Below, one piece after another: positions 17,379-17,652 of a stretch of DNA of 64,000 bases. Position numbers and translations under genes: made by a program. Location of the stretch: positions 64,001-128,000 of the IMG/VR virus record IMGVR_UViG_3300037524_002067. One strand, written 5' to 3'. The notes beneath the pieces are model-generated. The model was not told the origin of the DNA. It did no database searches and worked only from the letters and a program-made list of their open reading frames with translations. Within the stretch, counting starts at the first letter, position 1; each line of letters begins with the position of its first letter. The stretch is from a virus.

Positions 17379-17425
17379 TGGGAACGTAGTCATCGAAGAC
17401 CTTGGACATATTTCATCCCGTTCCC
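17379..17425 (-). ncRNA. Mini-tRNA-like RNA A (no anticodon arm)
   Basis: GGGAACG/CGTTCCC acceptor, GGAT/GTCC hairpin, GGTC-TTCGAT-GACT arm. Confidence 0.6.
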
Positions 17426-17471
17426 TGGTGGAGAGCAACTCACTTAAGAATCTAACCTTTCGGCACTCTCC
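17426..17471 (-). ncRNA. Mini-tRNA-like RNA B ending in ACCA
   Basis: GGAGAGT/GCTCTCC-ACCA, GCC-GAAA-GGT hairpin, weak T-like arm. Confidence 0.55.
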
Positions 17472-17480
17472 TTATTTTTG

Positions 17481-17552
17481 TGATCCATGTCGGGATCGAA
17501 CCGACGACCTTGGTTTTTAGAGAACCTCGCTCTGCCGCTGAGCTAATGGATC
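17481..17552 (-). tRNA. Amber suppressor tRNA (anticodon CTA)
   Basis: GATCCAT/ATGGATC acceptor, GCTC/GAGC D stem, GGTT-CT CTA AA-AACC, GTCGG-TTCGATC-CCGAC. Confidence 0.85.
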
Positions 17553-17557
17553 ATTTG

Positions 17558-17603
17558 TGGGAGTGTGGTTATCGAAAACCTAGACTCATTACAGCCCACT
17601 CCC
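17558..17603 (-). ncRNA. Mini-tRNA-like RNA C (no anticodon arm)
   Basis: GGGAGTG/CACTCCC acceptor, GGCT/AGTC hairpin, GGTT-TTCGAT-AACC; covaries with RNA A. Confidence 0.6.
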
Positions 17604-17652
17604 TGGTGGGAAATGTAGGATTTTAACCTACTACATCACTAAAGAATTTCCC
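17604..17652 (-). ncRNA. Mini-tRNA-like RNA D (acceptor + T arm + ACCA)
   Basis: GGGAAAT/ATTTCCC-ACCA, GTAGG-TTAAAAT-CCTAC. Confidence 0.6.

Follow-up and report, generated by a model that had tools for sequence, protein, structure and literature searches.

Anticodon-less, CCA-ended minihelix genes in tandem pairs with tRNA-shaped units beside a phage suppressor tRNA

Results

Four mini genes mimic the tRNA acceptor end

The sequence analyzed here (the window, 64,000 nucleotides) comprises bases 64001-128000 of a 154-kb IMG/VR virus record that derives from a large phage and is estimated to be 59% complete. A cluster of five RNA units begins 8 nt past the stop codon of an ORF: four mini genes of 46-49 nt each (D, C, B and A) placed around an amber suppressor tRNA (Table 1). 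The transcription order, D-C-suppressor-B-A, and the coordinates are exactly those given in a preliminary description of the locus. Spacers are nearly absent among the five units, and the D-to-C and B-to-A junctions have none. Here, the encoded ACCA ends of D and B abut the following unit directly: the next base after the CCA is G1 of C or A, and that G1 is preceded by A. Units with an encoded CCA (B, D) are termed X, and the tRNA-shaped units directly 3' of them that have no encoded CCA (A, C) are termed Y.

Table 1. Positions of the RNA units and associated features in the window and in related loci
Feature	Sequence	Coordinates	Strand	Basis or description
Unit D (X type)	window	17652-17604	(-)	MFE fold, covariance model R1
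Unit C (Y type)	window	17603-17558	(-)	MFE fold, covariance model R3
tRNA-Sup(CUA), amber suppressor	window	17552-17481	(-)	ARAGORN; Rfam RF00005 61.1 bits
Unit B (X type)	window	17471-17426	(-)	MFE fold, covariance model R2
Unit A (Y type)	window	17425-17379	(-)	MFE fold, covariance model R3
Mini-ORF	window	17334-17363	(-)	start ATG AAA (AAA) TAG
Pth2-like gene	window	18003-18392		MK-amber start
A/C-type homologue	L046	3077-3127		covariance model R3
Homologue of tetraloop body	L046	2581-2651		7-nt loop
Full-size tetraloop tRNA-like genes	L047	4146-4217, 4645-4712		D arm, T arm, GNRA-capped arm
Full-size tetraloop tRNA-like genes	L243	9211-9282, 9339-9410		D arm, T arm, GNRA-capped arm
Full-size tetraloop tRNA-like gene	L259	3508-3577		D arm, T arm, GNRA-capped arm
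Full-size tetraloop tRNA-like gene	L102	~570-645		D arm, T arm, GNRA-capped arm
Full-size tetraloop tRNA-like genes	L246	4021-4094, 4100-4178		D arm, T arm, GNRA-capped arm
Second mini site of G003	L324	1444-1610	(-)	= G003:C1 ~77990-78155
86-aa ORF	L046	1850-2092		
86-aa ORF	L047	3383-3643		
86-aa ORF	L243	8521-8778		
86-aa ORF	L002	3368-3625		
135-190-nt acceptor + T-arm RNA	L046	~2833-2968		
135-190-nt acceptor + T-arm RNA	L047	~4391-4545		
135-190-nt acceptor + T-arm RNA	L243	~8998-9163		
135-190-nt acceptor + T-arm RNA	L259	~3310-3440		
135-190-nt acceptor + T-arm RNA	L118	~2315-2505		
GOLLD RNA	L255	283-745		RF02032, 172 bits
Two D-like CCA-ended minis	L255	1597-1648, 1656-1705		within tRNA array
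UCCA-ended hairpin units	L272	~855-1018		36-37 nt
UCCA-ended hairpin units	L288	~195-236		36-37 nt

All four minis carry the elements of a tRNA end that had been ascribed to them: a 7-bp acceptor stem, starting GG; an A discriminator (A73); and a T arm or T-like hairpin set against the 3' acceptor strand. In D, the acceptor stem is followed by a 14-nt conserved single-stranded linker (UCUUUAGUGAUGUA), a canonical T arm (5-bp stem, 7-nt loop UUAAAAU), A73 and the encoded CCA. B has a 7-bp acceptor stem in which pair 7 is U-G, a 3-bp hairpin with a GAAA tetraloop, and a 5-bp hairpin with the loop UUAAGU that leads into A73 and the encoded CCA. In C, two 4-bp hairpins, the second T-like with the loop UUCGAU, lie between the 7-bp acceptor stem and A73, and a CAAA trailer follows. 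A has the architecture of C and ends in A73 with the trailer CAAAA, so that each mini is followed either by CCA and the next unit (D, B) or by a CAAA-type trailer (C, A). The T-like arms of B, A and C have 4-5-bp stems and 6-nt loops. Double compensatory changes (2, 2 and 1 pairs in the three helices) maintain the shared architecture of A and C.

In MFE folds, which agree with the structures first proposed, B, C and A form three-way junctions and D forms an acceptor stem, linker and T arm. The MFE z-scores against dinucleotide shuffles are -2.06 for D, -3.04 for C (fold energy -18.7 kcal/mol), -2.76 for B and -2.79 for A. None of the four folds as a tRNA cloverleaf with an anticodon arm when assessed with ARAGORN and Rfam, and the minis do escape tRNA scanners: ARAGORN calls none of the four, and the Rfam tRNA model has no match to A, B or C at E up to 10. 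On D, the same model reaches 24.4 bits, below its 29-bit gathering cut-off, with the D and anticodon arms deleted in the alignment. The sole RNA that Rfam and ARAGORN call in the cluster at default settings is the suppressor tRNA, which has no encoded CCA. The four minis are mimics of the tRNA acceptor end and are unable to read codons.

No convincing promoter flanks the cluster, and the minus strand between 16700 and 18600 has no terminator-like site, defined as a G+C-rich hairpin followed by a U run. Because no promoter or terminator of note flanks it, the cluster is probably cut out of an operon transcript. A mini-ORF starting ATG AAA (AAA) TAG comes after the RNA array and likewise after the arrays in at least four relatives (L002, L243, L047 and L259); the Pth2-like gene has a matching MK-amber start.

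Covarying homologues occur in related phage contigs

The exact junction pattern had no match in viral contigs, and the flanking ORFs and Pth2 gave no related loci as single queries. An alignment of Pth2 homologues yielded 124 loci, and a conserved 86-aa ORF beside Pth2 yielded 74 more. The 86-aa ORF, which has no Pfam or PHROG match, lies 3' of Pth2 in the closest relatives; it is present in 74 viral contigs and absent from the record of the window. Two metagenome contigs, L046 (Pth2 73% identical) and L047 (64%), have the same unit types arrayed downstream of Pth2, and the viral contig L243, found with a B-type pattern, also carries arrays of these types. The mini families are present in 8-9 other phage contigs.

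Covariance models were built for the D family (R1), the B family (R2) and the A/C family (R3). The search of phage contigs with such models, suggested in the preliminary description, found covarying homologues, with E from 1e-11 to 1e-18, well outside what chance would give. R1 scores 73.7 bits on D of the window and detects D-type units at 54-74 bits in L046, L047, L243, L255, L118 and L259, besides weaker D-type matches. Across nine sequences of the D family, 98% of cells are paired and 9 of 12 pairs show both-sided changes; none of 500 shuffles was as good, a count that is not a probability, as the sample is small (about nine contigs) and the contigs are mutually related, so that shuffle controls overstate independence. 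When the 3' partners are slid as a control, pairing drops to 54-68%, and RNAalifold independently returns the same structure.

R2 scores 71.8 bits on B and 31-75 bits on seven units in L046, L047 and L243. The B family (eight sequences) is 96.6% paired, with both-sided changes in 10 of 15 pairs and, under the same reservation, 0 of 500 shuffles as good. R3 gives 78.3 bits for A, 70.2 bits for C and 76.1 bits for a homologue in L046; in this family of three, pairing is 97.8% and five pairs, distributed over all three helices, are changed on both sides. Since R3 also scores B units (30-39 bits), B and A/C share an architecture. No further copies lie elsewhere in the 154-kb record.

The single-stranded segments are conserved as well. 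Across the window, L046 and L047, whose acceptor stems differ at 3 of 7 pairs, 13 of the 14 positions of the D linker are identical. A motif, YCUUWARUGA, is common to D and B, and in B it is carried by the second loop. Conservation of unpaired segments together with turnover of the stems argues for recognition in trans, beyond structure alone.

Taken together, these data bear on whether the minis might be decayed tRNA pseudogenes or chance hairpins without function. Phage tRNA arrays turn over fast, A and C resemble a tRNA that lost its anticodon arm, and a unit in the Y slot of L046 still has a 7-nt loop reading UUA. However, the both-sided compensatory changes preserve every helix, the loops are conserved, the CCA is invariant, the spacing rule is kept, and the units recur in about nine contigs whose Pth2 proteins are only 39-73% identical. 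Decay or chance is strongly disfavored and, in our estimate, highly improbable. The minis are real conserved genes; decay or chance cannot give this pattern.

A generic descriptor of an acceptor stem plus T hairpin was too loose (5102 matches in real sequence vs 3777 in shuffled sequence), and the more than 117 stretches that fitted a relaxed D-linker pattern were mostly coding and were all rejected as chance matches. Rfam has no family for the mini units, and a literature search on phage minihelices, anticodon-less phage tRNAs and tRNA decoys found no description of them.

CCA-ended units precede tRNA-shaped units

The order of units follows a simple rule. Eight contigs (the window, L046, L047, L243, L002, L115, L118 and L259) were read and gave 17 X units; in 15 of them, a second tRNA-shaped unit begins 0-1 nt after NCCA. 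This second unit is another X, a real tRNA-Cys, or a Y without encoded CCA. A third X type, besides B and D, is seen in L002 and L243.

The identity of Y varies. The window and one site in L046 have an A/C-type mini in this position, and L115 and L118 have a 42-52-nt mini with a canonical T arm. In L047, L243 and L259, Y is a full-size cloverleaf in which a GCAA, GUAA or GAAA loop closes the 6-7-bp stem of the anticodon arm. A GCAA-capped full-size unit in L102 comes after a short hairpin rather than an X unit. ARAGORN misses the full-size tetraloop genes or assigns them a four-base 'anticodon'; quadruplet decoding by these units was considered and rejected, as the four bases are GNRA tetraloops on 6-7-bp stems. 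The L046 homologue of the tetraloop body retains a 7-nt loop that ARAGORN reads as UUA. A and C occupy the slot filled in relatives by these full-size anticodon-less tRNA-like RNAs, which makes the X-Y pair the working module. A and C look like an anticodon-less tRNA body with the useless arm removed.

Short hairpin units of another kind are present in two further phage contigs, L272 and L288. These units end in UCCA and adjoin tRNA-Gly(GCC) and tRNA-Gly(UCC) across a 1-nt spacer; they may represent another X-type family. In L255, a GOLLD RNA lies beside a tRNA array that includes two D-like CCA-ended minis.

Discussion

The X-Y junction as a predicted RNase P site

The minis belong with the tRNA-mimicking non-coding RNAs. 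From their structure, conservation, covariation and X-Y syntax, we infer RNase P processing, action in trans and the nature of the target. With little more than even confidence, we favor a reading of the sequence in which the minis are excised as tRNAs are, RNase P gives X its CCA end, and X acts in trans.

A good bacterial RNase P substrate has a G1-C72 pair, a stack of 7+5 layers and A73-CCA; its minimal form is a 7-bp acceptor stem on a T stem, and RCCA pairs with the bacterial RNase P RNA. D and B have all three features (G1-C72, an acceptor/T stack of ~12 layers and RCCA), and A and C have the acceptor/T stack without an encoded CCA. The minis had been proposed to be minihelices processed by RNase P and ending in CCA. 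The layout fits: CCA abuts G1 of the next unit, and 30 of the 31 ordinary tRNAs that ARAGORN identifies in the mini loci have no encoded CCA. The cleavage itself is read from this layout, and one feature counts against it: RNase P prefers U before G1, where the mini Y units have A.

The proposed pathway would involve: transcription of the minis within the Pth2-to-suppressor operon and their excision in the manner of tRNAs; an RNase P cut at the 5' end of Y, which would release X with a finished CCA-3'OH end; and 3' processing of Y and of the ordinary tRNAs (N73, then a C-A-rich trailer) by the usual route. CCA is an anti-determinant for RNase Z. With a CCA end made by RNase P, X would need neither RNase Z nor a CCA-adding enzyme. 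The units mimic the top half of a tRNA, with the acceptor stem stacked on a T-like arm, a discriminator and CCA, and mature X would then bind a protein that recognizes this end of tRNA (acceptor, T arm and CCA); it could serve as a decoy or sponge, or else an RNA-binding protein could be its partner. Against this reading, neither a CCA-adding enzyme nor SmpB nor a DUF2828 protein is encoded in the 154-kb fragment (59% complete).

The same layout could arise if the minis served as cis-acting handles that separate the suppressor tRNA from the flanking mRNAs via RNase P and RNase Z, the excised pieces being functionless. The cluster lies inside an operon, 8 nt past an ORF stop and without a convincing flanking promoter or terminator, and the tRNA bodies with a GNRA tetraloop for an anticodon loop in the Y slot of relatives suggest that shape alone matters. 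A precedent is mascRNA, a tRNA-like element that defines the 3' end of MALAT1: in the mascRNA/MALAT1 and MEN-beta elements, the tRNA shape recruits RNase P, and one cut generates the upstream 3' end and the 5' end of the tRNA-like RNA. The likeness is a tRNA-shaped element that guides a cut from downstream, as proposed for Y. These elements differ in being eukaryotic and nuclear, with a long upstream RNA and CCA added after cleavage, whereas the minis encode CCA. Such punctuation is an unlikely function here. A tRNA is already its own processing signal, making four extra units superfluous; the unpaired X motifs are nearly invariant across phages with diverged stems; an encoded CCA is unnecessary for punctuation, yet specific to X; and an X-X pair with its own terminator is found away from any tRNA. 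A further point against the favored reading is that the functional RNAs may be the Y units, or in relatives the full-size tetraloop units, with X arising as a by-product.

The minis may, as first suggested, be decoys for tRNA-targeting toxins; a decoy for toxins that act on the CCA end would fit the sole features that all families share. More tentatively, large phages may encode a class of CCA-ended minihelices that mature by RNase P alone, through a tRNA-shaped handle, and serve as decoys or ligands for proteins that handle tRNA 3' ends. Examples of such proteins would be CCA-modifying immune toxins, Ro-like quality-control proteins and ribosome-rescue factors.

A possibly Ro-like gene beside a mini pair in a complete relative

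The complete 482-kb relative G003 has a second mini site in a different setting. Here, a 468-aa DUF2828+DUF7788 gene is followed by two CCA-ended minis and then an intrinsic terminator. The pair consists of a 57-nt CCA-ended three-way junction and a D-type unit with ACCA (32 bits). The site has no tRNA and no Pth2, and a PRPP-synthetase-like gene lies downstream. The presence of its own terminator, far from a tRNA, indicates that X units can be free-standing genes.

This arrangement raises the question of whether the minis are Y-RNA-like partners of a Ro60/TROVE-like DUF2828-vWA phage protein, acting in RNA quality control or repair. The 468-aa protein belongs to phrog_850, annotated 'RNA-binding protein', and the ESM Atlas clusters nearest to it, once its own family is set aside, are TROVE/vWA_Ro60 (0.93, 26 of 30 matches); this model-based likeness to TROVE/Ro60 is a lead only. 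The order of the genes, by analogy, recalls rsr-YrlA loci. Y RNAs encoded near Ro60 genes mimic tRNA. One of these tRNA-like RNAs, YrlA of M. smegmatis, has an acceptor stem of 7 bp; RNase P cleaves it, and it bears CCA in vivo (Chen et al. 2014, PMC4201824). YrlA genes adjoin a Ro60 gene, and Rsr is the protein partner of YrlA.

YrlA and DS6A's tRNA-like-domain-only tmRNA (below) are the nearest RNAs in concept to the minis. YrlA and the minis are both non-decoding mimics of the tRNA acceptor stem, D arm and T arm, and in G003 the CCA-ended minis lie directly 3' of the candidate Ro-like DUF2828 gene. They differ in length (46-49 nt vs roughly 100-150 nt), in the encoded CCA and tandem X-Y arrangement of the minis, and in the position of the window's minis beside a suppressor tRNA rather than a Ro gene. 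A Ro partnership seems unlikely overall. The arrangement occurs at one locus in one genome; DUF2828 was not found in the window's record or in three other mini-bearing records, all four of them fragments; and in six DUF2828 loci sampled from GenBank phages, D-type units are missing both downstream and elsewhere. In addition, Rfam models of Y RNA or YrlA do not match the minis at E up to 10, and no Ro-binding helix is evident in them. A lone 26-bit match to the D-type unit among five GenBank DUF2828 phages was rejected as apparent coding sequence without CCA.

Ribosome rescue, aminoacylation and Pth2

D-type units could in principle mimic the tmRNA tRNA-like domain (TLD), titrating SmpB or modulating ribosome rescue. 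The architecture of D equals a TLD minus helix 2 (acceptor stem, single-stranded D-loop analogue, T arm, ACCA), the arrays of relatives hold a roughly 150-nt acceptor + T-arm RNA, and the neighbors of the minis, Pth2 and the suppressor tRNA, all concern translation termination and rescue. Mycobacteriophage DS6A encodes a TLD-only tmRNA that has been proposed to titrate SmpB, and a similar molecule inhibits tmRNA whether chargeable or not (Hudson et al. 2014, PMC4131195). Like the minis, the DS6A RNA is phage-encoded and anticodon-less, with an acceptor stem, D-loop analogue, T arm and CCA. The minis are shorter, lack both G3:U70 and any match to a tmRNA model, and form three-way junctions in three of four cases.

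These differences weigh on the TLD proposal, which we regard as very unlikely. D, C and A have G-C at pair 3:70, B has A-U, and no homologue has G-U there. No tmRNA family matches at E up to 10 over 17300-17720, and ARAGORN (-m) finds no tmRNA in the whole record. B, A and C are three-way junctions, unlike a TLD, and a search of the 154-kb fragment found no SmpB gene.

The absence of G3:U70 also bears on the suggestion that the minis are non-decoding aminoacyl carriers, charged by a synthetase and donating to a non-ribosomal reaction. The acceptor stem, discriminator and CCA are complete, and synthetic minihelices are chargeable. Acceptor/T-arm minihelices and microhelices were reportedly made as synthetic RNAs by Francklyn and Schimmel in 1989. 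RNase P, the CCA-adding enzyme, EF-Tu and some synthetases all accept synthetic minihelices as substrates. The minis share with them the 12-layer acceptor/T stack, the discriminator and CCA; they differ in being natural genes in arrays, with an extra hairpin or a 14-nt linker and no known identity set. The carrier role, one of those first considered for these genes, is not supported by their sequences. Acceptor pairs 3-7 covary freely within the families, the discriminator is A or G, and a conserved acceptor identity set of the Ala minihelix type is absent, all of which argues against a defined synthetase identity. The idea that the acceptor stems are copies of those of the phage's own tRNAs was rejected: B alone resembles one of 37 (tRNA-Ser), without the Ser discriminator and long arm. 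A transferase of the Fem type or a similar kind was not seen nearby. We consider a carrier function highly improbable.

A partnership with the neighboring Pth2, also raised at the outset, was not supported either: minis are present in about 9 of about 200 Pth2 or neighbor loci, and the G003 pair sits without Pth2 or tRNA. Pairing of UUUAG in D with CUAAA of the suppressor anticodon loop, which would display the stop codon, was likewise rejected, because L243 and L259 carry UAA there while their suppressors are CUA.

Implications and further RNA genes

Mimics of the tRNA end have so far been single examples, namely tmRNA, YrlA, viral TLS and mascRNA. The phage clade described here has whole arrays of 46-49-nt CCA-ended minihelices with a fixed two-unit syntax, beside tetraloop tRNA bodies, and gene finders miss all mini and tetraloop units. 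The covariance models make the mini family searchable. If the proposal of trans-acting, RNase P-matured minihelices is correct, the minihelix, until now familiar as a laboratory construct, would have a natural role. If expressed as predicted, the minis would offer: a natural system to study the fate of non-decoding tRNA; a compact route to an exact CCA end by RNase P alone; and candidate RNA-based counter-measures for the struggle between phage and host over tRNA.

The phage has further tRNA genes of unusual form. ARAGORN identifies 37 tRNAs in the whole record, and many isoacceptors are doubled, with a normal-length gene and a second one of 84-89 nt that shares its anticodon (Cys, Ile, Lys, Thr, Asn, Met, Ala, Asp and Trp). 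A Ser/Arg/Trp tRNA block at 10500-13100 of the window, on the minus strand, contains several tRNA-shaped genes that ARAGORN does not call: two extra Ser-like genes, two D-armless Arg-like genes, and one acceptor stem + T arm around a ~170-nt insert.

The arrays of the relatives also include an RNA of ~135-190 nt that combines a tRNA-like acceptor stem and T arm with a long insert. ARAGORN does not call this RNA a tmRNA. The L046 copy has G3:U70, and the L046 and L047 copies share an in-frame stretch (ANKSE...stop) that is a possible tag reading frame.
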